Below, piece after piece: positions 1 through 31,279 of a stretch of DNA of 64,000 nt (the stretch's first letter is position 1; the number at the start of each line of letters is the position of its first letter). Source of the DNA: an uncultured bacterium (GTDB lineage: Bacteria > Acidobacteriota > Thermoanaerobaculia > Multivoradales > JAHZIX01); NCBI GenBank assembly GCA_965368975.1, contig CBDUPA010000011.1, positions 64,001-128,000 on the forward strand. The letters run 5' to 3'. The position numbers and the translations under genes are program-made. The notes beneath the pieces were generated by a model that saw only the letters and a program-made list of their open reading frames with translations, was not told the DNA's origin and made no database searches.

Positions 1-1065
1 GGCTTCACGCACCTGCAGCCAGCGCAGCCGACCAGCCTGGCGCACTACCTGGTGGGTGTGACCTGTGAGCTGGAGCGCGCGGTGGCACGGCTGGTCGACC
101 TGCTCGGCGCCATCGACCGTTCGCCGCTGGGGGCCGCCGCGGGTCTCGGCACACCCTTCGCGATCGACCGTGAGCAAGTGGCGCATCTGCTCGGTTTCAA
201 GGGCGTGATCGCCAGTTCCCTGGACGCGGTGGCGTCGCGGGACTTTGCCGTGCGCACGCTCGCCGAACTGGCGCAGATCGGCGCGACGCTCAGTCGCTGG
301 GCGCTCGACTTCCAGCTCTGGGGTAGTCGCGCCTACGGCTTCCTGGATTGGACGGACGACCTGGTGAGCACGAGCTCGATCATGCCGCAGAAGCGCAACG
401 CCTACGTGTGGGAGGACATCCGCGGTCTGGCGGTGAAGCCGGCGGGGGCGCTGGTGGACGCGCTGATGGGCGCCAAGAACACACCCTTCAGCAACAGCGT
501 CGAGGCCGGGACGGCCGCGGTCTCGACCCTGTGGCCGGCGGTGCGGGCGAGCGTCAAGGCGCTACGGCTGGCGTCGCTGTTGATCGCCAATACGAGCGTG
601 CGGCCGCGGCGCATGCGCCAGTTCGCCGTCGACGCCGAGACCACCATGACCGCTGTCGCCGACCACCTCGTGGCCGTCCATGGCATGGCCTTTCGCAGCG
701 CGCACGATCTGGTCGGCCAGGCTGTGCAGCGGGCCTTCGAGGCGCACGGCGAGGGCTCGCTCACCGACCCGAAGCTCCTGGCGGAGCTGTTGAACGCGTC
801 GCTGCCGGCGTCGTGGGAAGGAGGGCCGCTGGAAGCAGCGGGTCTGGCCGAGTTGCTGCAGCCGGAGCACAGCCTGCACGCCGCGGCCTACGGCGGTGGT
901 CCGGCGCCGGCCGTGGTGGCGCCGCAGCTGCGGGAGCTGGAGCAGCGCGTCGACGCTCACCGCGCGGCGGTGGCGCGGCGGCGCGAGGTCTGGCTCGAGG
1001 CGTGCCAAGAGCTGGACGCCGAGGTGGCACGTCTGTGTCGTGAGGTCTCAGGGGGATCGCCGTGA
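1..1065 (+). CDS. Argininosuccinate lyase-like (fumarate lyase superfamily), 5' end outside window; PacQ-like
   Basis: Frame 1 is open from base 1 (GFTHLQPAQP) and contains the SSIMPQKRN signature loop and an FRSAH motif. Confidence 0.9.
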   Translation, partial: GFTHLQPAQPTSLAHYLVGVTCELERAVARLVDLLGAIDRSPLGAAAGLGTPFAIDREQVAHLLGFKGVIASSLDAVASRDFAVRTLAELAQIGATLSRWALDFQLWGSRAYGFLDWTDDLVSTSSIMPQKRNAYVWEDIRGLAVKPAGALVDALMGAKNTPFSNSVEAGTAAVSTLWPAVRASVKALRLASLLIANTSVRPRRMRQFAVDAETTMTAVADHLVAVHGMAFRSAHDLVGQAVQRAFEAHGEGSLTDPKLLAELLNASLPASWEGGPLEAAGLAELLQPEHSLHAAAYGGGPAPAVVAPQLRELEQRVDAHRAAVARRREVWLEACQELDAEVARLCREVSGGSP

Positions 1066-3299: not shown

Positions 3300-4420
3300 T
3301 GCCGACACCAACCAAGGCAACAGCAGCGAAGAAGGTCGACTCCGTGCTGGAGCTGATGCGCGACAGTCCGCTGGTGGCTCTGCGTGGACGCTCGGTGTCG
3401 ACGCCTCGGGCTGATCTGTGGGGCAAGCTGGAGCTGGCGCTACCCGGGGCGATGAAAGACCGTGTCGCGCTCCACATCGTCGAGCGCGCCGAAGCGGCCG
3501 GACAGCTGCAGCCCGGGGGCATGATCGTCGAGAGCTCGTCCGGGACGTTGGCCGAAGGTGTCGCGCGCGTCGGCGCCGTCAAGGGTTATCGGGTGATCAT
3601 CGTCACCGATCCGCGCATCGACGACATGACGCGGCTCAAGCTGTGTGCCCTGGGGGCCGAGGTCGACGTGGTGGAGACTTACCACCCCACCGGCGGCTGG
3701 CAGCAGTCGCGCCTCGAACGGCTGCGGCAGCTTCTGGCCGAGCACCCCGAGGCGTTCTGGACGCGTCAGTACGACAATCCGGACAACGCCGGTGCCTACG
3801 ACGTCCTGGCTCGAGAGCTGCGGGAGGCCCTGGGGGACTCCATTGGTGCCCTGGTCGGATCGGTTGGCAGCGGCGGTTCGCTGTGCGGTACGGCACGCGC
3901 GCTGCGGCGGAGTCTGCCCGAGCTGCGCGTGGTTGCGGTCGACGCCACCGGCTCACTGCTCTTCCACCAGCCCGCCGGCCAGCGGCTGCAGAGCGGGCAC
4001 GGCAACAACGTGGTGGCCGGCAACCTGGACTACCGTCAGATCGACGAGGTGCACTGGATCAACGACAGCGAAGCCTTTCTGGCCTGCGGTGAGCTGGCCA
4101 GGCGTGAAGGTATCTTCGGCGGGGGGTCGTCAGGAGCTGTGTACGTCGCTGCCTCGTGGCTGGCCGAGCAGCTGCCGCCCGGCCGCGACGTCGTTGCCCT
4201 GCTGCCCGATCGTGGCGACCGCTACAGCGCCAAGATCTACGCCCCGGCCTTCCTGGCCGAGCACGGTCTGCACACTGCGGCCGCGGCTGCGCCCCGGCGT
4301 ATTCGCTACGGCGTCGACGTTGCCGAGGCGTGGAGCTGGGCGCCCTTGCCGCACGATGGCTCGGTGCCCTACTGCCGGCCAGATGCCGAGCGCACGGCGG
4401 ATCTGACGTCTGGCTGGTGA
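3296..4420 (+). CDS. PLP-dependent cysteine synthase family enzyme (beta-replacement; SbnA/DabA/PacS-like)
   Basis: KLE...MKDR Schiff-base lysine, ESSSGT, QYDNPDN, GSGGS and GGSSG; ATGA overlap with upstream stop at 3296. Confidence 0.9.
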   Translation: MMPTPTKATAAKKVDSVLELMRDSPLVALRGRSVSTPRADLWGKLELALPGAMKDRVALHIVERAEAAGQLQPGGMIVESSSGTLAEGVARVGAVKGYRVIIVTDPRIDDMTRLKLCALGAEVDVVETYHPTGGWQQSRLERLRQLLAEHPEAFWTRQYDNPDNAGAYDVLARELREALGDSIGALVGSVGSGGSLCGTARALRRSLPELRVVAVDATGSLLFHQPAGQRLQSGHGNNVVAGNLDYRQIDEVHWINDSEAFLACGELARREGIFGGGSSGAVYVAASWLAEQLPPGRDVVALLPDRGDRYSAKIYAPAFLAEHGLHTAAAAAPRRIRYGVDVAEAWSWAPLPHDGSVPYCRPDAERTADLTSGW

Positions 4421-4877: not shown

Positions 4878-6020
4878 ATGGTCAGGACGCAGCCCTCCGA
4901 GCCGACACCCGCGGGCGCACAGTCCCGTACGAGATCGACACGCGATCCCGGCGCCCAATTCTTGCTCACCGCGGCCAGCGTGGTGATCATTGTCGCCGGC
5001 CTCAAACTGGGTGCCGAGTTGCTGCGGCCGATGATCATGTCGCTGTTCCTGGCCGTAGTCTCGATGCCGGTGCTCAACTGGCTGCGCCGCAAGGGCTTGC
5101 CGGTGCCAGCTGCGGTACTGGTGACCCTGCTGGTGGTGCTGGTGGCGTTGTCGAGCATGATCGCGCTGGTCGGTAGCTCGGTGGCCTCTTTCACGGCCCG
5201 AGCTCCGGAGTACCAGGAGCGTCTCGTCGAACTGACGACTTCGGTCGAAGACTGGCTGGTCGTGCAGGGCATGCCGCGCGAGTCCGTGGGCCTGCGCCAA
5301 CTGATCCGGCCGCGCCAGGCCATGGAGTACCTGGTCAACAGTCTGAGCACGGTGGCCGAGGCGGTCTCGGGTGTCACGCTGATACTGCTGACCATGGTCT
5401 TTATCCTGTTCGAGGCAGTGACTTTCGAGAGCAAGCTGCGCTTGGCGTTTCGCCTGCCGCCGGACCAGCCGCACCCGTTCTCCAACATGCTGCGCGAGAT
5501 CCAGCAGTACTTGGGTATCAAGACCGTGGTCAGCCTCGGCACCGGGTTACTGATCGGTACGTGGTGTGGTTTCTGGCATCTCGAGTTCTACATCCTTTGG
5601 GGTCTGGTCGCCTTCGTGCTCAACTACATCCCGAGCATCGGCTCGATCATCGCCGCGATTCCCGCGGTGCTGCTCTCCTTGCTGCAGCAGGGGCCAACGC
5701 ACGCGGTGATTATCGCCGCCGGTTACCTCGCCGTGAATTTCGCCTTCGGCAACTTCCTGGAACCCTCCTGGTTGGGCCGCCGACTCGGGCTCTCGACGCT
5801 GGTCGTGATCCTGTCGCTGATCTTTTGGGGCTGGGCTTGGGGACCGGTCGGCATGCTACTGTCGGTGCCGCTAACGATGGTGGTCAAGATTCTGCTACAG
5901 AACACCAATGACCTCCGCTGGTTGGCCGTCTTGCTGGGCAATCTGCCGCCGAACCCCGACGAGAGGACGGTCGCGGACAAGCTCGCCGATGAGGCCGGGC
6001 CGCAAGGCCGAGTTGGCTGA
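4878..6020 (+). CDS. AI-2E family transporter (PerM/TqsA-like)
   Basis: Multi-TM protein with LNYIPSIGS, GNFLEP and WGPVGMLLSVPL motifs. Confidence 0.9.
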   Translation: MVRTQPSEPTPAGAQSRTRSTRDPGAQFLLTAASVVIIVAGLKLGAELLRPMIMSLFLAVVSMPVLNWLRRKGLPVPAAVLVTLLVVLVALSSMIALVGSSVASFTARAPEYQERLVELTTSVEDWLVVQGMPRESVGLRQLIRPRQAMEYLVNSLSTVAEAVSGVTLILLTMVFILFEAVTFESKLRLAFRLPPDQPHPFSNMLREIQQYLGIKTVVSLGTGLLIGTWCGFWHLEFYILWGLVAFVLNYIPSIGSIIAAIPAVLLSLLQQGPTHAVIIAAGYLAVNFAFGNFLEPSWLGRRLGLSTLVVILSLIFWGWAWGPVGMLLSVPLTMVVKILLQNTNDLRWLAVLLGNLPPNPDERTVADKLADEAGPQGRVG

Positions 6021-24415: not shown

Positions 24416-25719
24416 GTTCCGGCCCCAAGCCCGCCCCAGTCTCTGGTAACCAGCAGGCTGCTGCTACCCCAAAGAGCTCTGGAGGCAAGAAGCGCAACGG
24501 TGGCGCCCCCAGGCAGCTGTGGGTGCTCATGATGATCGTTTTCGTCGACATGATGGGCGCCTTGATCGTCATGCCACTGCTGCCGTACTACGCCGAGAAT
24601 TTCCAGGCGGACGGCTTCACGATCGGCCTGCTGACATCGGTATTCGCCGCCGCGCAAATGTTCAGTGCCCCGTTCTGGGGTCAGCTCTCGGACCGCTACG
24701 GCCGCCGTCCCATTCTGCTCGTTGGCCTGATCGCCTCGGCGATCGCCTATGTTTTCTTCGGCCTTGCCACCGGCCTGTGGATGCTCTTTGTCACCCGTGT
24801 CATGCAGGGCACGGGAGCCGGCACCATCGGCGTCGTACAGGCCTACGTCGCCGACTCGGTGGAAGCCTCTGAACGCTCCAAGGCTCTAGGCTGGACCACT
24901 GCCGCTGCCAGTGCCGGTGTCACCATTGGGCCGCTGATCGGTTCCGCGCTGTCGCCTCTGGGTGCTGAAGCCCCCGGCCTCTTCGCTGCCGGCCTGTGCC
25001 TGCTCAACCTCGCCTTTGCCTGGCGCCTGCTGCCGGAGTCTTCGGCCAAGGGGGGCACGAGGGAGCGCACGTCCCTGTGGCGCTCGGCTGGCCAGGTCGT
25101 GGCCCATCCGACTCATCCGGTCAGCTCGCTGATCTGGATCTACACCGTGGCCATGATGGCTTTCATGGCTTTGAGCGCCATGATGGGGCTGTACCTGATG
25201 GAACGCTTCGATATCACCGAGCAGCAGATCGGCTTCTTCTACACGCTGCTTGGCGGTATCTCGGTGGTCATGCGTGCCGTGTTGCTCGGTCCGATCGTCG
25301 ACCACCTCGGTGAACCGCGTGCGATGCGCGCCGGGGCGGTTTGTATGACCGTCGGTTTTCTACTAGCCCCCCTGGCATCCAGCGTTTCCGCTTTCCTGAT
25401 GGTGATTCCGTTGATCCCGATCGGTACGGCGATGCTCTTCCCGGTGTCGACCTCGCTGTTGTCGCAGCGTTCGGACCAGACCTTGGTCGGACAGACTCTC
25501 GGCGTGCAGCAATTCTTTCGCGGCATCGCGGGCATCCTTGGGCCGGGTGTCGCCGGTGCCGTCTACGAGGCATCGCGCGACGCCTACGTCGGCACGGACT
25601 ACGCTGGCGTCAGCCTGGGCGCCCCGTTCTTCCTCGCCGGTGCGGTGATGGTGCTGGTCGCCGTCGGCACGCTGTTCGTTCAGAAGCACGCGAGCCGGCA
25701 TGCAGACCAACGAAAGTAG
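24412..25719 (+). CDS. MFS transporter (TetA/DHA1-like)
   Basis: [11 protein letters not shown] motif A, about 12 TM segments; ATGA overlap. Confidence 0.92.
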
Positions 25720-25757
25720 GGGAAGTAGCCGAGGCAGAGGTAGCGCAGGGTACACGC

Positions 25758-25786
25758 AAAAAAGCCGCGCTGTCGAGCGCGGCCTT
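25758..25786 (-). terminator. Intrinsic terminator of tRNA-fMet
   Basis: GCCGCGC/GCGCGGC stem plus T6 on the minus strand. Confidence 0.8.
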
Positions 25787-25793
25787 CGCAGGG

Positions 25794-25877
<84 letters not shown>

Positions 25878-26116
25878 TCACCGTTTTCAAAGGGCGGCGA
25901 ATCGAGAGAACCCGTGCGCCGCCGGAAGGGAGATAATCTCACAGGATGGGGGACGCGTCAAGTCCACATCGCATCAGGTCGTGTCCTAACAGCTGTTGGC
26001 GGAGGGAGTCGTGATGGCCAAGAGTAGCGCGGGATCCGTCTCACGTCGTTTCGGTACACTCTACAGTTACACAGCTCGGTGTGGGGCCGGGACTGGGTAT
26101 CTGTGGGGGGTACAGG

Positions 26117-26908
26117 ATGGCAAGCGGTGGCAAGGTAGCATTTCGTCTGGTATCCGGTCTTCTGACGACCATTTTTCAGGCGCCTAAGAGGACTGGCACA
26201 CCCGTGCGATGGGCAATCTTGCTGGGCTTGGTAGGCGCCGGGATTTGGAGCGAGACTAGGGAGTTTCTCGTGAGTCACCCGACTGAAAGCGGCTTCGGAC
26301 TTTTCGCGATCGCCGCTGTGGCCTATGCATACGACCTCCAGGCACGCCTTGTTGGCCTTGATGGTGTCAGTTTGAAGTCTGCAACCGCACAGGCAAGGTA
26401 TGTAGAGATGTTGAAATTCAGCCCAGAAGGGGAGATTCGTAACATCCTCGCATGCACTGTTAGCTATCAACTGCTCAATACTTCTGGCGAAGTAGCCCAT
26501 TCCTTCCCGTTGGTCGAACTGGTTTCTATCTCGCCATCCAAAGCAACCAAGACCATCCAGGTGCAAGCAATCGATGCAAGCCTACGGAGCCGACCGCTAA
26601 CCAGTCGGGGTCTAGGCGACCTGCTGACGCAGGGCTACGAGATGATCTTGCATCCACGCCAGACTACCAACTTTGAGTATGGCGTCTGCTGGTCAAATGT
26701 AGATATGGAGCGACTAGCCAGGTCGGGCCGGCTCCATGTTCGGTTGACGCTTGAGATCGTCGGTCAAGAAAAAATTGTGAAGCTACTCAAACTGCCTGTT
26801 ACGCTACCGATGCTTGAGAAGTCGCCGCAGTCAGCAAATCCATCATCTTCCAAGGCCTTGCCACCACCCCCGCCTTCATTGCGGGAGTCATCCGGATCGA
26901 GCGGTTGA
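26117..26908 (+). CDS. Passenger hypothetical protein with N-terminal hydrophobic segments
   Basis: Long ORF of visibly lower GC; candidate -10 TACACT at about 26055; 3' end overlaps the transposase 3' end. Confidence 0.65.
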   Translation: MASGGKVAFRLVSGLLTTIFQAPKRTGTPVRWAILLGLVGAGIWSETREFLVSHPTESGFGLFAIAAVAYAYDLQARLVGLDGVSLKSATAQARYVEMLKFSPEGEIRNILACTVSYQLLNTSGEVAHSFPLVELVSISPSKATKTIQVQAIDASLRSRPLTSRGLGDLLTQGYEMILHPRQTTNFEYGVCWSNVDMERLARSGRLHVRLTLEIVGQEKIVKLLKLPVTLPMLEKSPQSANPSSSKALPPPPPSLRESSGSSG

Positions 26909-27803
26909 ACTTGCACAGGTTGTAGTGTGCGAAGTGCAGGCCGAACGCGGCGCGCAGGTTCTCCCACTTCTTGGAGAAAGCGCAGGTCAGGCGCGTCATC
27001 CGCTTCATGTGGGTACGCGTCGTGAGGTTAAGCCGCTCAATGTGGCTGGTGCAGATGTCGGACTTCTCAGGGGCTCCGTGTACCGGGATCCGGGTGACGC
27101 CTATTATCGACGCCGGGGAGTACCGGCGCTGGTCTTCCTTCGTAGCAGCGGCGTAGTCCTTGATGATCTGGCCGTAGTCGACGCGGGTGCCGAGGTGGTA
27201 GTTCACGGCTTCCGTGTAGGCTTCGAGGCCATCTGAGGACAGCTGGAAGCGTCCGGCCGTGGCCTTGCTCAGGCGCTCGACGAAGGCGTCCGCGTCGCGG
27301 GCAGTGCGTTGGCCGAGGTGGTGCGTCAGCACGAGCTTGCTGTCACGGTCGACGGCGGCCCAAGACCAAGAATCGCCGAGGTACGGCGTCTGAAGCTGCT
27401 TGCGCTTCTTGGTCTTCTGCTTCATGCCCACGAAGCCCCATTGCTCGTCTACCTGCACGTTGCTGACCTGCACACCCTGCACCATCCGTTCGAGCAGATC
27501 GGCGCAGCGGTCGCCGACCGTGCGAAGCAGACGGCACACGGTATCGCGGTGCGTGCCGGTGATCCGCTCGACGCTGCGGATGCTCGACCCCTCGACCAGC
27601 AGCGACAGCACAAGCATGATGCGCTCCGCCGGCAGCCGGTGACCAGGCACCAGCGGCGCGGGGCGGTCGGCGAAGGTCGAGCCGCAATCCTTGCAGCGGA
27701 ACCGCTGGTGACCACTCGAATCCTTGCCCCAACGGACAACCGTCGAGCCGCTGCACTGCGGGCAGCTTGGCCGGGCTGTCTGGGTGTGGTTCGCGGTGGT
27801 CAT
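26799..27803 (-). CDS. IS1-family transposase (single ORF: Zn ribbon, HTH, DDE)
   Basis: CPQC...QRFRCKDC zinc ribbon, SIRSVERITG HTH, VDEQWGFVG / SDG...Y / TSHIERLNLT catalytic motifs. Confidence 0.93.
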   Translation of the reverse strand: MTTANHTQTARPSCPQCSGSTVVRWGKDSSGHQRFRCKDCGSTFADRPAPLVPGHRLPAERIMLVLSLLVEGSSIRSVERITGTHRDTVCRLLRTVGDRCADLLERMVQGVQVSNVQVDEQWGFVGMKQKTKKRKQLQTPYLGDSWSWAAVDRDSKLVLTHHLGQRTARDADAFVERLSKATAGRFQLSSDGLEAYTEAVNYHLGTRVDYGQIIKDYAAATKEDQRRYSPASIIGVTRIPVHGAPEKSDICTSHIERLNLTTRTHMKRMTRLTCAFSKKWENLRAAFGLHFAHYNLCKFNRSIRMTPAMKAGVVARPWKMMDLLTAATSQASVA

Positions 27804-27827
27804 GGCTTCGTTCTCTCGACTGTCTTA

Positions 27828-27897
27828 ATTGTAGCCCCAATGGGACTACATAGTCAAGGGGTAGAGGTTGATTTTGTTGCCCCGATGGGACTACACT
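27828..27897. promoter_or_regulatory. Back-to-back promoters, each containing the same ~21-bp palindromic operator
   Basis: Minus strand TTGACT-18-TACAAT; plus strand TTGATT-18-TACACT; operators TGTAGCCCCAATGGGACTACA and TGTTGCCCCGATGGGACTACA. Confidence 0.8.
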
Positions 27898-27903
27898 CAC
27901 TGC

Positions 27904-28080
27904 ATGAGCGAGAAAGAAGAGAAACGGGCTCACTCGGCCTCCGTTCGGGTTCGACTGCTTCCAGAGCATGACGAGCTGATCCGCCAAGCGGCGGAGCACG
28001 CGGGGGTCAGTCTTTCGGATTGGATGCGGCTGGTGCTGCTCAAGGCAGCGCGGGAGGAGTTGGGGCAGGGCGGCGCGTAG
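27904..28080 (+). CDS. Ribbon-helix-helix protein (DUF1778/MobC/CopG-like), 58 aa
   Basis: SVRVRLLPEHDELIRQAAEHAGVSLSDWMR; ATG 6 nt after the -10 box (leaderless). Confidence 0.85.
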   Translation: MSEKEEKRAHSASVRVRLLPEHDELIRQAAEHAGVSLSDWMRLVLLKAAREELGQGGA

Positions 28081-28203
28081 GGGCCGGACCTCGACCGCCC
28101 ACGGCGTGGTATCAGGGAGCGCGCCAGCAGCGGGCACCAACGGCGCCACCGCTGCACACGCTCCCGTGTGCCTCCTGGTCTCATGGGACCTCCGATGTCT
28201 GTA

Positions 28204-28304
28204 TTGACGCGGGGACCCCAGGGGTCTAGGATGGGGCTGCTTCCAATAAGCGCCCTGACTCCGCGTCAGGTTTAAGGGAACCCCGGCTGCAACCGGGGTT
28301 TTCT
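28204..28304 (+). ncRNA. Putative ~65-nt small RNA with its own promoter and terminator
   Basis: TTGACG-17-TAGGAT; hairpin CCTGAC/GTCAGG; terminator AACCCCGG/CCGGGGTT-TTCT; no ORF inside. Confidence 0.55.
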
Positions 28305-28376
28305 GCTGTCTGGGGGAGAGCTTGAAGGCTCAGACGAAGCGAATCAAGAGGTCCGAGAATTTGACCTGGTGAGCAC

Positions 28377-28460
28377 TAACTTTTCCAGGCGGGCCACCAT
28401 CAAAATTAACTTTTCCAGCTCAATCCGGATCTTTTCCAGCTTTCCCCAAATCTTTTCCAG
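28377..28460. repeat. Four phased CTTTTCCAG direct repeats (iteron-like)
   Basis: Copies start at 28380, 28410, 28431 and 28452 (spacing 30, 21, 21). Confidence 0.8.
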
Positions 28461-29079
28461 TTGTTGGCATAGATGCCCAGGCCAGATCCCGCTTCGCTTC
28501 GCGAAGATCTCTGAGGAGGGCTTCTTTGCGTTTGAGCGCTTGGTGCTCCTGCATGCGCTCTTGAAGCTCTCTTTTTGCAGCCTCCTGAGTTGGCAGCTCT
28601 TTGCTGTTCAGAAGCACGGAAAGCAAGGCTTCGTCATCAGCTTCAACCCAGATCAGCCTCTCAAGCAGCCGCTTGACCGCTGCAAGATCGCTCTTGATGC
28701 GATCCGCCGATGCAGACAGATTTATGCCCAGCTCCTCAGCTGCGGGGCGAAGCTCTTCCAGCTTGGCTAGGGCCTGCTTCTCTACCTGCTTTCGGCGCTG
28801 GTAGTGAGCTTCAATGCGGCGTTCAGTGGATGGCTTGAGCGGCTTTGGCCTCTTCATGCCACCAGACGCCAAGAAGCCGGGGAAGCCCTTTCGTAACGTC
28901 CCTTCCAGGGTTGGCTTCAGCCTGTGTCTAGCAATGATGCGCTGAGCTAGCTCGGTGTTTGAGAGGCGCCTTGTTCCACCTTCCTCGCGGATGATCTCGC
29001 CCATCTCGTACCAGTAGAACGAGTAATCGCCCGGCTTTGGCCCTGGTTTCGCCACAGCACCCCCACAGTGCACCCACAC
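28420..29079 (-). CDS. Passenger hypothetical basic/coiled-coil protein
   Basis: ORF up to 219 aa with K/R/E-rich helical segments; candidate -10 TAGAAT at 29171-29176; start uncertain (29079 or 29004). Confidence 0.6.
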   Translation of the reverse strand: MWVHCGGAVAKPGPKPGDYSFYWYEMGEIIREEGGTRRLSNTELAQRIIARHRLKPTLEGTLRKGFPGFLASGGMKRPKPLKPSTERRIEAHYQRRKQVEKQALAKLEELRPAAEELGINLSASADRIKSDLAAVKRLLERLIWVEADDEALLSVLLNSKELPTQEAAKRELQERMQEHQALKRKEALLRDLREAKRDLAWASMPTTGKDLGKAGKDPD

Positions 29080-29193
29080 CGGAGGAAGTGCGGCGCGGCA
29101 GGCTGGGGTGTGGGGTTCCCAGCTTTTCGGCGGCCATTCCTAGCCGCGCCTTGAAACTGAATCTGAGGGGATTCTACAGGAAGGGAGGCGGGA

Positions 29194-29565
29194 TCAGCTC
29201 AGAGCCACTTCGAGGCTGTCGGCGATGGCTCCGACACGCGGCGCGGTCTGCCCGGCAAGCTGCGACAGGCGCACGCCATCGGCCCCAAGCTGGCTTTCGA
29301 TGTAGGACCGGCCCACGGTGGCGAAGAAGCCTTGCAGGTGCCGCAGGTCGCGAATACCGGCGCGGATCTCCGAACGGGTGACGGTGGCCTCGATCAGCTC
29401 GCGCTGTGGCAGCTCCAAGGCCATCAGGTAGAGCGAGCGTCCGACGGTGCGCCACGCTTGCCGGTACTCGGGCGCTACGTGGAGCGTGAGGAAGGTTTCC
29501 CGGAAGAACGGGAAGTCCTCCCATTGGGAAGGGTCGAAGCGGGTAGACTGCGTTTCAGCGGCCAT
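29194..29565 (-). CDS. Passenger hypothetical helical protein, 123 aa
   Basis: AGGAG RBS 8 nt upstream of ATG; protein-like composition. Confidence 0.7.
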   Translation of the reverse strand: MAAETQSTRFDPSQWEDFPFFRETFLTLHVAPEYRQAWRTVGRSLYLMALELPQRELIEATVTRSEIRAGIRDLRHLQGFFATVGRSYIESQLGADGVRLSQLAGQTAPRVGAIADSLEVALS

Positions 29566-29827
29566 AGGTCTAGCTCCTGTGGTCGTCAGGCTCGGCCGTT
29601 GTGTGTCAGCACTCGGTCGAGCCGCTTTCCTGGTTTGGGGCTCGGAAGCCCCGGCTTCAGGTGCAGTCTACGGTGGAGTTCTCCGCCCGTGTTCCGAAGG
29701 AACCCGCCAACACGCTGTTAGGACACGACCTCGCATCACATCCATCTCTTGTCGCGACCTCTTCAACGCTGGGTCGCTTCTTCAACGCCCATCGGTCTTC
29801 GGCACCCAGTCGCCATTCTGATGGTTG

Positions 29828-31279
29828 TCACTGCAAGTACCCCAAAGCCTTCAGCCGCGCCGTCGTTTCTTCCGCTGCCTGGATGCTCTGTCGTCGATCC
29901 TCGCCCTGACGGTCGAGCCACCGCATGAGTTCTCGGCGCATGGTGCGGTAGGTTTCCGGCTGGGTCTGCTGAAGCTCTCGTTGCTCGTCCGGATCGGCTT
30001 GCAAGTCGAACAGGCGTCCCTGGTTCTCGCGCAGGTTGTAGATCAGCTTGTAGCGACCCTCGCGCATCGAGCGGTAGACGTTCTGGACGCTGTGGGAGAT
30101 CTCGAAGCCCTCGACGCCCGGCTCGGTTGCCATGCCGCGTTCGATCAACGGACGCAGGCTGTTGCCCTCGAAGGGCGCAGCCTCGATCCGCACGCCGACG
30201 TAATCGAGGATCGTCGGTACGATGTCGAGGTTGCTCGTGATCGCGTCAACGCGGGAACCGGTGTCCATTGTGCGCAGCGATGCCGGGGGCTTGACGACCA
30301 AGGGGGTGCCAATGACGGCCTGGTAGAGCGAGCGACAATGCTTGATGTGTTCGTGCTCGAGGAACTCCTCGCCGTGGTCGGAGGCGACGACTACCAGAAG
30401 CTCGTCGAGCAGGCCGCGTTCGTCCAGCCGCGCGAGTAAGGCACCCAGCTGCTGGTCGAAGAAAGCGATCTCTTCGTCGTAGAGGTCGACCAGGTGCTCC
30501 AGGTCCCGCCCGCTGATCTCGACTTCCTCACCGTCGTCGTAGAGCATGCGGGCGATCGGGTTGGGGTTGCCCATGGCGACGAAGTCGTGCCCCTCGTAGG
30601 GGCGCAGGAAGCGCGGCTGGTGGATCGCTGGCGGACGGTAGGGGCCGTGTGGCTCCATGTAGTGCAGGTAGAGGAAGAAGGGGACGTCGTCTTCCTCGGC
30701 GTTCTCCGGCGTCCGCTCCGTATCTAGCAAGTGCAGCGCGCGATTGTTGACGCAGATCGCGTGATTCCACTCGCAGTGCTCGTCGAAGACATCGAAGCCC
30801 CCGCCGAACCCCCCGTCGGGATTGTGCTTGGAGGGCGTTGCCCGGACGATCGGGCTGGCCGAGACACCGAGGGTTCGGTAGCCGTGGTGCTGCAACACCT
30901 GGGGCAGTGACAGCAGGCGATCCGGAATACCCATGTAGCGCTTGCTACCGGTGAAGAAGAGCGCCGGCCCGCGCGAGGTGAGCATCGAGTTGACGGACGG
31001 GTAGGTGCAGGCGGCTTGGCTGCTGTGGTTCTCGAACAGGAAGTTGTTCGCCGCCAGGGCGTCGAGGTTGGGACTGGTATCGCGCGCATAGCCGTAGCTG
31101 CCGAGGTGATCGGCACGCAGCGTGTCGACGACGATCAGCAGTACATTGCGCGGGGTCTCACTCGGTGGTTCGCTCGCCGCACTTCCGGCCCCACCCTCCG
31201 GGGGTGCACAACCGATCGACGCCAGAACTATGAGGCCGAGGCTCCAGGCGAGAGCCGCACAAATTCGACAGCTGCCCAT
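29828..31279 (-). CDS. Sulfatase/alkaline phosphatase superfamily lipoprotein
   Basis: VVDTLRADHL, TYPS, HYMEPHGPY, YDEEI, SDHGEE and LKALGYLQ. Confidence 0.9.
   Translation of the reverse strand: MGSCRICAALAWSLGLIVLASIGCAPPEGGAGSAASEPPSETPRNVLLIVVDTLRADHLGSYGYARDTSPNLDALAANNFLFENHSSQAACTYPSVNSMLTSRGPALFFTGSKRYMGIPDRLLSLPQVLQHHGYRTLGVSASPIVRATPSKHNPDGGFGGGFDVFDEHCEWNHAICVNNRALHLLDTERTPENAEEDDVPFFLYLHYMEPHGPYRPPAIHQPRFLRPYEGHDFVAMGNPNPIARMLYDDGEEVEISGRDLEHLVDLYDEEIAFFDQQLGALLARLDERGLLDELLVVVASDHGEEFLEHEHIKHCRSLYQAVIGTPLVVKPPASLRTMDTGSRVDAITSNLDIVPTILDYVGVRIEAAPFEGNSLRPLIERGMATEPGVEGFEISHSVQNVYRSMREGRYKLIYNLRENQGRLFDLQADPDEQRELQQTQPETYRTMRRELMRWLDRQGEDRRQSIQAAEETTARLKALGYLQ

Follow-up and report, generated by a model that had tools for sequence, protein, structure and literature searches.

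The 64-kb window examined here, a stretch of contig CBDUPA010000011.1 from the genome of an uncultured acidobacterium, contains an element bounded by terminal inverted repeats and an 8-bp target-site duplication (TSD) that together enclose 3754 bp. The element encodes a transposase of the IS1 family in a single open reading frame (ORF), a divergently transcribed ribbon-helix-helix (RHH) protein, a helical protein of 123 amino acids (aa; ORF123) and two further proteins, ORF275 and ORF219. It also carries a small-RNA-like cassette and two structured leaders, one of which matches the Rfam motif int-alpA. We consider it probable that this is an intact passenger-carrying insertion sequence of the IS1 family, in which a conserved regulatory frame surrounds two cargo slots. 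Its features, by position in the window, are as follows.

25969–25976, no strand: left TSD copy, TCGCATCA, identical to 29731–29738.
25977–26002, plus strand: left terminal inverted repeat, beginning GGTCGTG, with 17 perfect bases (25977–25993) and an imperfect TGTTGGCGG extension; the consensus GGTCGTGTCCTAAnnnnnTGTTGG also ends nine related elements.
26000–26835, plus strand: putative cargo slot 1 with ORF275 (26081 or 26117 to 26908, plus strand), from contig joints 25999 to 26835 and 25999 to 26844.
26799–27803, minus strand: single-ORF IS1-family transposase, 334 aa, with an N-terminal zinc ribbon, a helix-turn-helix region and a DDE domain, from profile matches.
27828–27857, minus strand: predicted transposase promoter, TTGACT-18-TACAAT, from a promoter scan (10 of 12 consensus matches).
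27829–27850 and 27874–27895, no strand: two 22-bp imperfect palindromes, presumed RHH operators, from a repeat search.
27904–28080, plus strand: RHH protein, 58 aa, divergent from the transposase gene (PF21983, NikA-like, 29.9 bits; cut-off 27).
28081–28187, no strand: block conserved downstream of the RHH gene; it contains a hairpin, GCACACG-CTCC-CGTGTGC; only four distinct copies.
28204–28304, plus strand: small-RNA-like cassette, from a promoter scan and folds; contig joints at 28313.
28314–29055, minus strand: putative cargo slot 2, ORF219 and a repeat array, from joints to 29056 or 29058.
28377–28460, no strand: phased array of four TTTTCCAG-containing 12-mers at spacings of 30, 21 and 21 nt, crossing the 3′ end of ORF219.
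29037–29162, minus strand: int-alpA-type 5′ leader, in which stems P1 and P3 are followed by a pyrimidine tract and two G-boxes, the second being the ribosome-binding site, and then by the ORF219 start codon.
29194–29565, minus strand: ORF123 (123 aa, helical), which belongs to a large unnamed protein family.
29589–29623, minus strand: leader hairpin just upstream of the ORF123 ribosome-binding site, common to 12 paralog loci in the same genome.
29705–29730, minus strand: right terminal inverted repeat, perfect part 29714–29730.
29731–29738, no strand: right TSD copy, 8 bp, read from the sequence.

Perfect 17-bp inverted repeats, GGTCGTGTCCTAACAGC, occupy positions 25977–25993 and, as the reverse complement, 29714–29730. 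The 8-bp direct repeat abuts both ends, and the inverted repeats go on imperfectly to ∼26 bp, with one 1-nt indel, ending in (G)TGTTGGCGG. Among the perfect inverted repeats in 25700–30000 whose arms are separated by 500 nt or more, the longest has 18 nt; 200 mononucleotide shuffles gave longest repeats of 10–14 nt. The perfect repeats and TSD that a first-pass annotation had placed around 3754 bp thus stand, and the inverted repeats are longer than any that shuffling produces. In the entire window only one pair of inverted 17-mers is found 500–8000 nt apart, and it is formed by the ends of the element. The element is single-copy in its 7.1-Mb, 59-contig genome (one DNA match and one protein match), and a search of that genome for a second good end match found none. 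A site on another contig that resembles the inverted repeat with two mismatches lacks the TGTTGG extension, and a reversed-pattern control gave three matches, so we took this site to be a chance match. Separately, the insertion point lies 8 bp upstream of the −35 hexamer of a promoter-like site on the minus strand (TTGACG-17-GATTAT with TG; 25933–25976), which faces tRNA-Met (25801–25877, minus strand). Because of this position, the element adjoins the probable tRNA-Met promoter.

Classical IS1 has two ORFs, insA and insB′, joined by a −1 frameshift, in about 0.7–1.2 kb. In the ISfinder tables, IS1 family members have GGnnnTG ends and target duplications of 8–9 bp, and one IS1 subgroup, ISMhu11, reaches about 4.6 kb; a literature search on the name ISMhu11 found no paper. 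The transposase of the element scores 113.2 bits against NCBIfam NF033558, ‘IS1 family transposase’ (cut-off 100), 41.6 bits against Pfam DDE_Tnp_IS1 (PF03400; cut-off 24.1), 40.2 bits against Zn_ribbon_InsA (PF03811; cut-off 26.1) and 49.7 bits against NF050000 (cut-off 28). No IS1595 DDE family is among its profile matches. In tblastn searches it shares 26–27% identity over 90% of its length with IS1A copies from enterobacterial plasmids, and 38–43% identity with genes named ‘IS1 family transposase’ by PGAP on alphaproteobacterial plasmids. Two of the latter that we inspected have hypothetical and XRE-type genes as neighbours. The protein can be aligned end to end with eight relatives. Both ends of the element read GGTCGTG, which is the GGnnnTG pattern, next to an 8-bp TSD, and the same is seen in the relatives.

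By profile, ends and duplication the element belongs to the IS1 family, as the first-pass annotation had proposed. It shares the transposase profile, the InsA-type zinc ribbon, the GGnnnTG ends and the 8-bp duplication with IS1, both IS1A and single-ORF members. Unlike classical IS1, it has one long ORF of 334 aa and is, at 3754 bp instead of about 0.8 kb, much larger, again as first described; it further has a separate RHH regulator, a putative small-RNA gene, two leaders and two cargo slots. The layout of the two-ORF IS1 is therefore not the one found here, and the single ORF and the length exclude the classical subgroup only, not membership of the family. The distance from the transposase gene to the left end of the element is 0.82 kb, and to the right end 1.93 kb, in agreement with the first estimates of ∼0.8 and 1.9 kb.

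Relatives of the element separate its constant parts from its variable ones. When 41 genomes of its order, its own among them, were searched with the DNA, 16 gave matches. Nine further complete elements were extracted from sister genomes; they carry the consensus GGTCGTGTCCTAAnnnnnTGTTGG on both sides and measure 3481–4665 bp. Eight of the nine have their own perfect 8-bp duplication, each of a different sequence, while the ninth (L020) has none. When the proteins were compared with 12 related loci by tblastn, the transposase was recovered in all 12, RHH in 10 and ORF123 in four, and neither ORF219 nor ORF275 in any. ORF clustering places ORF123 homologs in eight of the 10 complete elements, and the int-alpA-type leader and the small-RNA cassette are each present in nine. 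In four metagenome runs, contigs at least 90% alike span the transposase, RHH, the block after RHH, the leader, ORF123 and the right repeat, and leave positions 26000–26835 and 28314–29055 uncovered. These contigs join 25999 to 26835 or 26844, and 28166, 28187 or 28313 to 29056 or 29058. The borders thus marked are sharp. The first gap runs from the inside of the left repeat to the final conserved codons of the transposase, the second from where the small-RNA terminator finishes to the ORF219 start codon. Third-position G+C is 0.58 in ORF275 and 0.61 in ORF219, against 0.83 in the transposase and 0.81 in ORF123.

The absence of homologs in relatives, the sharp joints and the low third-position G+C together argue for two cargo slots in a conserved frame. 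We read ORF275 (slot 1) and ORF219 with its array (slot 2) as variable cargo, and RHH, the small-RNA cassette, ORF123 and both leaders as backbone. The first-pass annotation had counted all of these as cargo, and this list is borne out for ORF275, ORF219 and the array alone. Likewise, of the three ORFs it called orphans, ORF275 and ORF219 are orphans and ORF123 is a member of a large family with 12 paralogs in the same genome. Its phased repeat array is present in four copies; it overlaps the 3′ end of ORF219 and belongs to slot 2. The non-coding modules are conserved in relatives and so are more than random filler: when IR-bounded relatives are extracted around transposase homologs, as it had proposed, the modules recur in the closer elements. 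It had reasoned that unrelated cargo together with no conserved non-coding modules would speak against a system; distant relatives do carry unrelated cargo, whereas closer ones share the non-coding modules. An integron-like platform would need an integron integrase and attC-type sites beside its cassettes. Profile scans found no integrase in the element, and what borders its slots is the start codon behind the leader, the terminator of the small RNA, the left repeat and the 3′ end of the transposase.

The cargo genes of this copy offer few clues to function. The 3′ end of ORF275 overlaps the transposase gene in antisense by 110 nt, and hydrophobic stretches near its N-terminus look membrane-spanning by eye. 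ORF275 has no homolog except itself in a search of 5.8 billion proteins, none in the 12 related loci, and no Pfam, NCBIfam, PHROG or PADLOC family. Atlas feature matches at 0.92 to unnamed acidobacterial clusters are a lead only. A BLASTP comparison among the left-slot proteins of the 10 elements found no relation. In slot 1 of L017, a SocA/Panacea antitoxin lies next to a 159-aa ORF. ORF219 was listed at 28420–29079 (minus strand), with its stop at 28420–28422; the likeliest start is the GTG at 29055, which gives 211 aa. A homolog search with ORF219 returned only itself, profile scans assigned no family, and its Atlas scores (0.81–0.82, all <0.9) fall under the useful range. In a single-sequence AlphaFold2 model (pLDDT 72) the protein is helical throughout, beginning with three short helices and continuing with long ones, and Foldseek found nothing for it at E ≤ 0.001.

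The word repeated in the array is (C)TTTTCCAG. Arrays of differing sequence occupy the same relative place in L007 (four copies at a 21-nt phase), L020 and L025, and it is plausible that each array is bound by its own slot-2 protein. Slot 2 in relatives includes one PIN-domain protein and two proteins that combine Trans_reg_dom (PF20109) with RovC_DNA-bd (PF10074), at L019 6952–7641 and L022 2624–3283. The pairing occurs in activators of excision in integrative conjugative elements.

The leader upstream of ORF219 extends a known RNA family. Rfam RF02996 (int-alpA) matches positions 29078–29150 on the minus strand with 42.7 bits (gathering threshold 35.8; model positions 1–71), and has no match elsewhere in the genome. 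The leader resembles RF02996 in scoring above gathering, in keeping its core, CUAG...CGAAAAGC...CCUG, and in having two covarying stems. It differs in that RF02996 belongs, by its family name, beside integrase or alpA genes, whereas the present copy is found within an IS1-type transposon, ahead of variable genes, and in relatives unrelated genes follow it; the main text of PMC5737381 makes no mention of ‘alpA’. The leader also continues 3′ past the int-alpA model into a pyrimidine tract, two G-boxes and a start codon. Conservation beyond the Rfam model covers the pyrimidine tract, G-box 1 (typically GUGGGG) and G-box 2 (GUGGGGG or GGAGG). G-box 2 sits 5–6 nt before an NUG-GCG start, and the 211-aa product that the gene caller gives for ORF219 starts at that GTG. 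A custom model of the extended leader (R1) scores the copy in the window at 113.6 bits and has 48 matches in 30 of 121 genomes of the order. Across 37 leaders, 99.1% of the cells of the two stems pair and six of the 12 pairs are changed on both sides; none of 500 shuffles reached as high, counts that are not to be read as probabilities, since the sequences are related to one another and had been aligned to fit the model.

The loop of stem P3 is complementary to the G-boxes and varies with them. Complements in the P3 loop track the G-boxes as CCCCAC/GUGGGG, CCCGUAG/CUACGGG, CCGCA(G)/(C)UGCGG and CCCGC/GCGGG, and in many leaders both G-boxes follow the loop type. Over 33 distinct leaders the longest loop-to-downstream complement averages 6.12 nt. 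Permuting the partners gives a mean of 4.72 and at most 5.30, so that the observed average is matched in 0 of 2000 permutations. RNAalifold also pairs the pyrimidine tract with the G-boxes. We propose that the leader may be a translational switch in which the P3 loop pairs either with a decoy G-box or with the ribosome-binding site, the pyrimidine tract being a further possible mask of that site. The leader begins about 30 nt after the end of ORF123, which makes coupling to ORF123 translation possible.

In the loci sampled, leaders of this type mostly lie near IS1-type transposases. The sample comprised 20 further leader loci from across the order, including one or more that repeat a known locus (L176 is L032); of these, 16 have an IS1-type transposase within about 2.5 kb of the leader, downstream on the same strand in 13 and on the opposite strand in three. 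ORF123 is upstream in 10 of the 20 loci and an RHH gene is present in six. Two loci in which the leader seemed to drive the transposase directly (L173 and L184) contain transposase fragments lacking the N-terminal half, and we set them aside as deletion derivatives. L023 has two inward-reading int-alpA-type leaders near its two ends, at 836–957 (plus strand) and 4287–4414 (minus strand), with an ORF123 homolog at the left one and not at the right. On the reverse strand of L173, at about 4930–5010, a short Cys-rich ORF with a Lys-rich N-terminus lies upstream of a degenerate leader on the opposite strand.

ORF123 connects the element to other loci of the same genome. A 10-member profile recovers 868 representatives at E ≤ 0.001, 442 of them at E ≤ 1e-10, from 1.84 billion proteins; a Pfam scan of ORF123 members found no family. 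An alignment-based AlphaFold2 model has five helices (pLDDT 77). Foldseek against PDB gave nothing at E ≤ 0.001, and a wide VIA search returned generic helical-hairpin matches whose best Z score (8.6) is in the uninformative range for helical proteins. The genome contains 13 ORF123 matches, namely the copy in the window and 12 diverged paralogs. Ten of the 12 paralogs directly precede an ORF of 328–329 aa, and in seven of those 10 an ORF of 359–400 aa follows. In the one operon that was scanned with Pfam, these ORFs encode a JAB protein resembling RadC and a tyrosine integrase of the P4 type that carries an Arm DNA-binding domain. All 13 ORF123 copies have a hairpin just before the ribosome-binding site, and the outer stem in the copy of the window carries a compensated change (GGCCCG/CGGGCC to GGCUCG/CGAGCC).

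The operons of ORF123, RadC-like JAB protein and P4-type integrase thus share the ORF123 family and the hairpin leader with the element. Unlike the element, they end in an integrase (in the one scanned), without an IS1 transposase and without an int-alpA-type leader; a search for such a leader at the integrase loci of the genome found none. The element thus joins to its IS1 core a promoter-proximal module found elsewhere at the head of integrase operons. The 12 paralogs have a conserved TTGAC-type promoter and a structured 5′ region of ∼200 nt. They lie on contigs C15, C28 (three places), C42, C45, C48, C49, C51, C55 and C56 (e.g., L131 5436–7995). Several are at contig ends, so that they look like a multi-copy family of integrative elements. 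Aragorn places a tRNA-Thr about 300 bp upstream in one paralog locus. Locus C28_52617 has near-identical upstream sequence in the alignment, and aragorn reports no tRNA there.

The region between the transposase and RHH genes is a putative divergent control region. The RHH gene adjoins the transposase in 10 of the 12 related loci, and its product has weaker matches to TacA, HicB, RelB, MobA and TraJ in addition to the NikA-like family. The promoter scan found three promoter-like sites in the region, where shuffled sequences had 0.9 on average. The candidate RHH promoter, TTGATT-17-TACACT (plus strand), was read by eye, is absent from the scan and would leave the gene nearly leaderless. The palindrome at 27829–27850 covers the −10 and spacer of the transposase promoter, and that at 27874–27895 covers the −10 and spacer of the by-eye RHH promoter. 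The same palindrome is found in L017, L022 and L023, whose RHH proteins are about 82–88% identical over the aligned part. Elements with a diverged RHH protein (38–55%; L018, L020, L021 and L026) have different repeats at the same place. Palindromes that sit on promoters and change with RHH fit an autoregulated repressor of the transposase, and this is the role we suggest for the RHH protein.

After the RHH gene lies the conserved block with its hairpin. A candidate small Arg/Trp-rich ORF beginning MRPGGTRERVQRWRRW runs from 28184 down to 27930 on the minus strand, antisense to the 3′ part of RHH, with an ATG and a ribosome-binding-like site. Its first ∼25 codons are conserved in four distinct elements with many third-position changes, while lengths range from 37 to 84 aa and the product would not be hydrophobic; the conservation would fit coding as well as RNA structure. 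Read-through of the RHH stop codon into the conserved block was considered and dropped, as the frame relation differs in L022.

The small-RNA-like cassette is situated between slot 2 and the transposase control region. A promoter (TTGACG-17-TAGGAT, 28204–28232, from the promoter scan) would direct a transcript of about 65–70 nt with two hairpins, followed by a G+C hairpin and TTTTCT. Nine of the 10 complete elements retain the promoter, a short second hairpin with compensated stem changes, and the terminator. A search against Rfam gave no family at E ≤ 1. RNAalifold found no consensus pairs on the alignment used, and the model built from it (R2) therefore scores sequence only; R2 recovered its nine training copies and three weak candidates among 32 sources. 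We suggest that the small RNA, its hairpin terminator and the convergent RHH transcript may limit how far transcription of the cargo operon runs on into the transposase gene. The minus strand carries ORF123, slot 2 and the transposase alike, so transcription of the cassette and RHH would shield the transposase.

Passenger-carrying IS1-type elements extend well beyond the order. A wider scan took one genome per species; a query with the single protein against contigs had no match, and a query with an alignment yielded at least 569 confirmed relatives among the 600 pattern matches listed. Counts for the wider family refer to the best 80 of these at least 569 relatives. In 51 of the 80 loci, GGTAGTGTCCTAA-like repeats (14 or more matching positions out of 18) and a duplication enclose the element; the duplication matches at 8/8 positions in 49 and 7/8 in two. 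The bounded elements are 1742–6497 bp long. Named records are mostly from Acidobacteriota, with others from Verrucomicrobiota, Planctomycetota, Pseudomonadota, Bacteroidota and further groups. When all non-transposase ORFs of at least 75 aa in the 51 elements are taken as passengers, 36 of 199 have a Pfam family (E ≤ 1e-4). These passengers include GmrSD, a 910-aa methylase-specificity fusion, a STAND NTPase, NYN, HNH, a ClpP-like protein and DUF4143 with AAA_14. Toxin-antitoxin families among them are MazF/PemK, HicB, Gp49 with HTH_3, PIN, Fic, SocA/Panacea and RelA_SpoT. Passenger-carrying IS1-type elements are thus common, with diverse cargo. Three passenger ORFs are nested transposases of other families, from DDE_Tnp_1_4 or DDE_3 insertion sequences inside three IS1-type elements (L100 1111–2448, L096 6659–7987 and L059 6871–7941); part of the size range therefore comes from secondary insertions. 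In a quick maximum-likelihood tree of 98 transposases, a sample biased by the finding of leader loci through a leader search in one order, the 21 leader-bearing rows split between two supported groups that are distant from each other, with 15 in a group of 22 and six in a group of 10.

Two kinds of described transposon come closest to this architecture. In excerpts of PMC9330008, transporter insertion sequences (tIS) have IS-type ends, a transposase and passenger genes inside the repeats, and an excerpt of the TnCentral preprint limits tIS to the IS1595 and IS66 families. The element is alike in its IS-type ends, its one transposase and the passengers within its repeats, with ORF275 and ORF219 as variable passengers. 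It differs in being IS1 by profile, and its conserved non-coding frame around the cargo is not part of the excerpted tIS definition. Tn3-family transposons with toxin-antitoxin passengers, as treated in the excerpts of PMC9330008, are similar as unit transposons with passengers beside the transposition control region. Here, by contrast, the transposase is of a different family, there is no resolvase or res site, and the frame includes RNA-based elements. A literature search for an IS1 family transposase with a defense system and cargo found no match. Within the literature searched, the riboregulatory frame, the placement and 3′ extension of int-alpA and the link to the ORF123 family are new, as far as these searches reach.

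Taken as a passenger-carrying IS1-family insertion sequence, the element would work as follows. As its anatomy and its relatives show, the single-ORF DDE transposase acts on ∼26-bp terminal repeats beginning GGnnnTG and makes 8-bp target duplications. The divergent RHH protein would bind the two palindromes and repress both the transposase and itself. The conserved regulatory frame comprises the putative small-RNA gene with its strong hairpin terminator, ORF123 with its hairpin leader and the int-alpA-type leader for the slot-2 gene, and the cargo is probably exchanged by recombination between conserved flanks. It is tempting to go further and to see in the IS1-type transposons of this one acidobacterial order a riboregulated cargo platform. 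The pseudoknot leader would then supply the slot-2 ribosome-binding site and start context and switch between decoy box and ribosome-binding site. ORF123 and the cis-encoded small RNA would set the switch and insulate the transposase, and cassettes would be swapped between elements and transposase lineages at four fixed borders. We regard this extended model as conceivable but rather doubtful. If true, it would amount to an integron-like gene-shuffling device without an integrase, and would provide the first defined role for int-alpA RNA and for the ORF123 family.

Several results weigh against the reading as a passenger-carrying IS1 element with a regulatory frame. In the wider family the leader is found in only two of the 80 loci, and the ORF123 and RHH profiles match one and eight of the 51 bounded elements, respectively. 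With the leader and ORF123 missing from most of the family, the ‘frame’ is a trait of one host order rather than of the transposase family. Six changes of the leader label are needed on the transposase tree, and well-supported branches force at least four of them. The modules look like a mosaic rather than co-inherited, and the frame seems to track host order more than transposase lineage. Duplex scans of nine small RNAs against their own elements found only the trivial antisense site and no shared second site. The fitting of the leader alignment to its model, noted above, tempers the covariation counts. The sequence between the joined sides of the metagenome contigs is not known, so replacement of a slot and its deletion look the same there. 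A second copy or a transposition event was not seen in the element’s own genome, and contigs of the four metagenome runs, in which the right flank is uncovered, held no empty site. The ‘recently mobile’ label of the first-pass annotation is no more than plausible: the perfect repeats and TSD speak for it, while the element is single-copy and no empty site was seen. Finally, we infer RHH binding, the existence of the small RNA and the activity of both leaders from sequence.

Other readings give the conserved or the variable genes a different purpose. The cargo of this copy (ORF219 with its array, ORF275, or both) might serve anti-phage defence or exclusion. Passengers of the wider family such as GmrSD, the methylase-specificity fusion, the STAND NTPase, DUF4143 with AAA_14 and NYN lend this some appeal, as does the low third-position G+C of both cargo genes relative to the backbone (0.81–0.83). 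Yet PADLOC reports only a weak match of SspC to the helical part of ORF219 (14.8 bits, E 0.0011) and none for the other four proteins, ORF219 and ORF275 have no homologs by which to judge co-occurrence, and only 36 of the 199 passenger ORFs have a Pfam family, in counts that carry no enrichment test. We therefore think a defence role for this copy unlikely. Alternatively, the conserved accessory genes could be a selfish payload or addiction module, with RHH as antitoxin to the small ORF or slot-2 protein, or with the small RNA and a minus-strand transcript as a type I-like pair. RHH does match the TacA, RelB and HicB antitoxin families weakly, the small RNA would be perfectly antisense to any minus-strand transcript leading into the small ORF, and relatives carry SocA/Panacea, PIN, MazF, HicB, Fic and RelA_SpoT passengers. 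A co-transcribed toxin is nevertheless absent, as no ORF follows RHH on the plus strand before the small-RNA promoter; the palindromes sit on the transposase promoter and the by-eye RHH promoter, the slot-2 protein varies between elements while RHH is constant, and the small ORF has only four distinct copies and is not hydrophobic. This makes an addiction module quite unlikely. The first-pass annotation had offered addiction or defence as possible roles, and PADLOC returned nothing meaningful for either in this copy.

Two further proposals concern the nature of the element itself. If it were mobilisable, the NikA-like RHH protein and the palindromes would form an origin-of-transfer accessory module for a conjugative relaxase. 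The RHH protein exceeds the Pfam NikA-like cut-off and has weak TraJ and MobA matches, and the RHH protein of a related element also matches NikA-like; but RHH families cross-match widely, profile scans found no relaxase or coupling protein in the element, and one palindrome covers the −10 and spacer of the transposase promoter, as operators do. We consider mobilisation very improbable. Hardly credible, in our view, is a remnant of a tRNA-linked integrative island or prophage that was hit by IS1 and whose outer inverted repeats are fortuitous. It would account for the tRNA-Met about 100 bp from the left end, and for the ties of int-alpA (by its Rfam name) and of the ORF123 family to integrase genes elsewhere. 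The 18-nt perfect inverted repeat, however, is far beyond chance, the same outer ends with different 8-bp duplications recur in eight other elements at unrelated sites, profile scans found no integrase inside, and the 5′ side of the tRNA faces the element.

A passenger-carrying IS1-family insertion sequence is thus the reading we retain. IS1 is the textbook minimal insertion sequence, and our results point to a large IS1-type family of 1.7–6.5 kb in Acidobacteriota, Verrucomicrobiota, Planctomycetota, Pseudomonadota and Bacteroidota. Such passenger-bearing IS1-type elements would be a neglected vehicle for accessory genes in soil bacteria. The analysis also puts int-alpA, an orphan Rfam motif, in a testable setting: the motif forms a 5′ leader holding the ribosome-binding site for a gene that can be swapped, and covariation supports a pseudoknot. 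The element links the int-alpA motif, the ORF123 family and the integrase operons in one genome, and so gives access to how mobile elements of several kinds are regulated.

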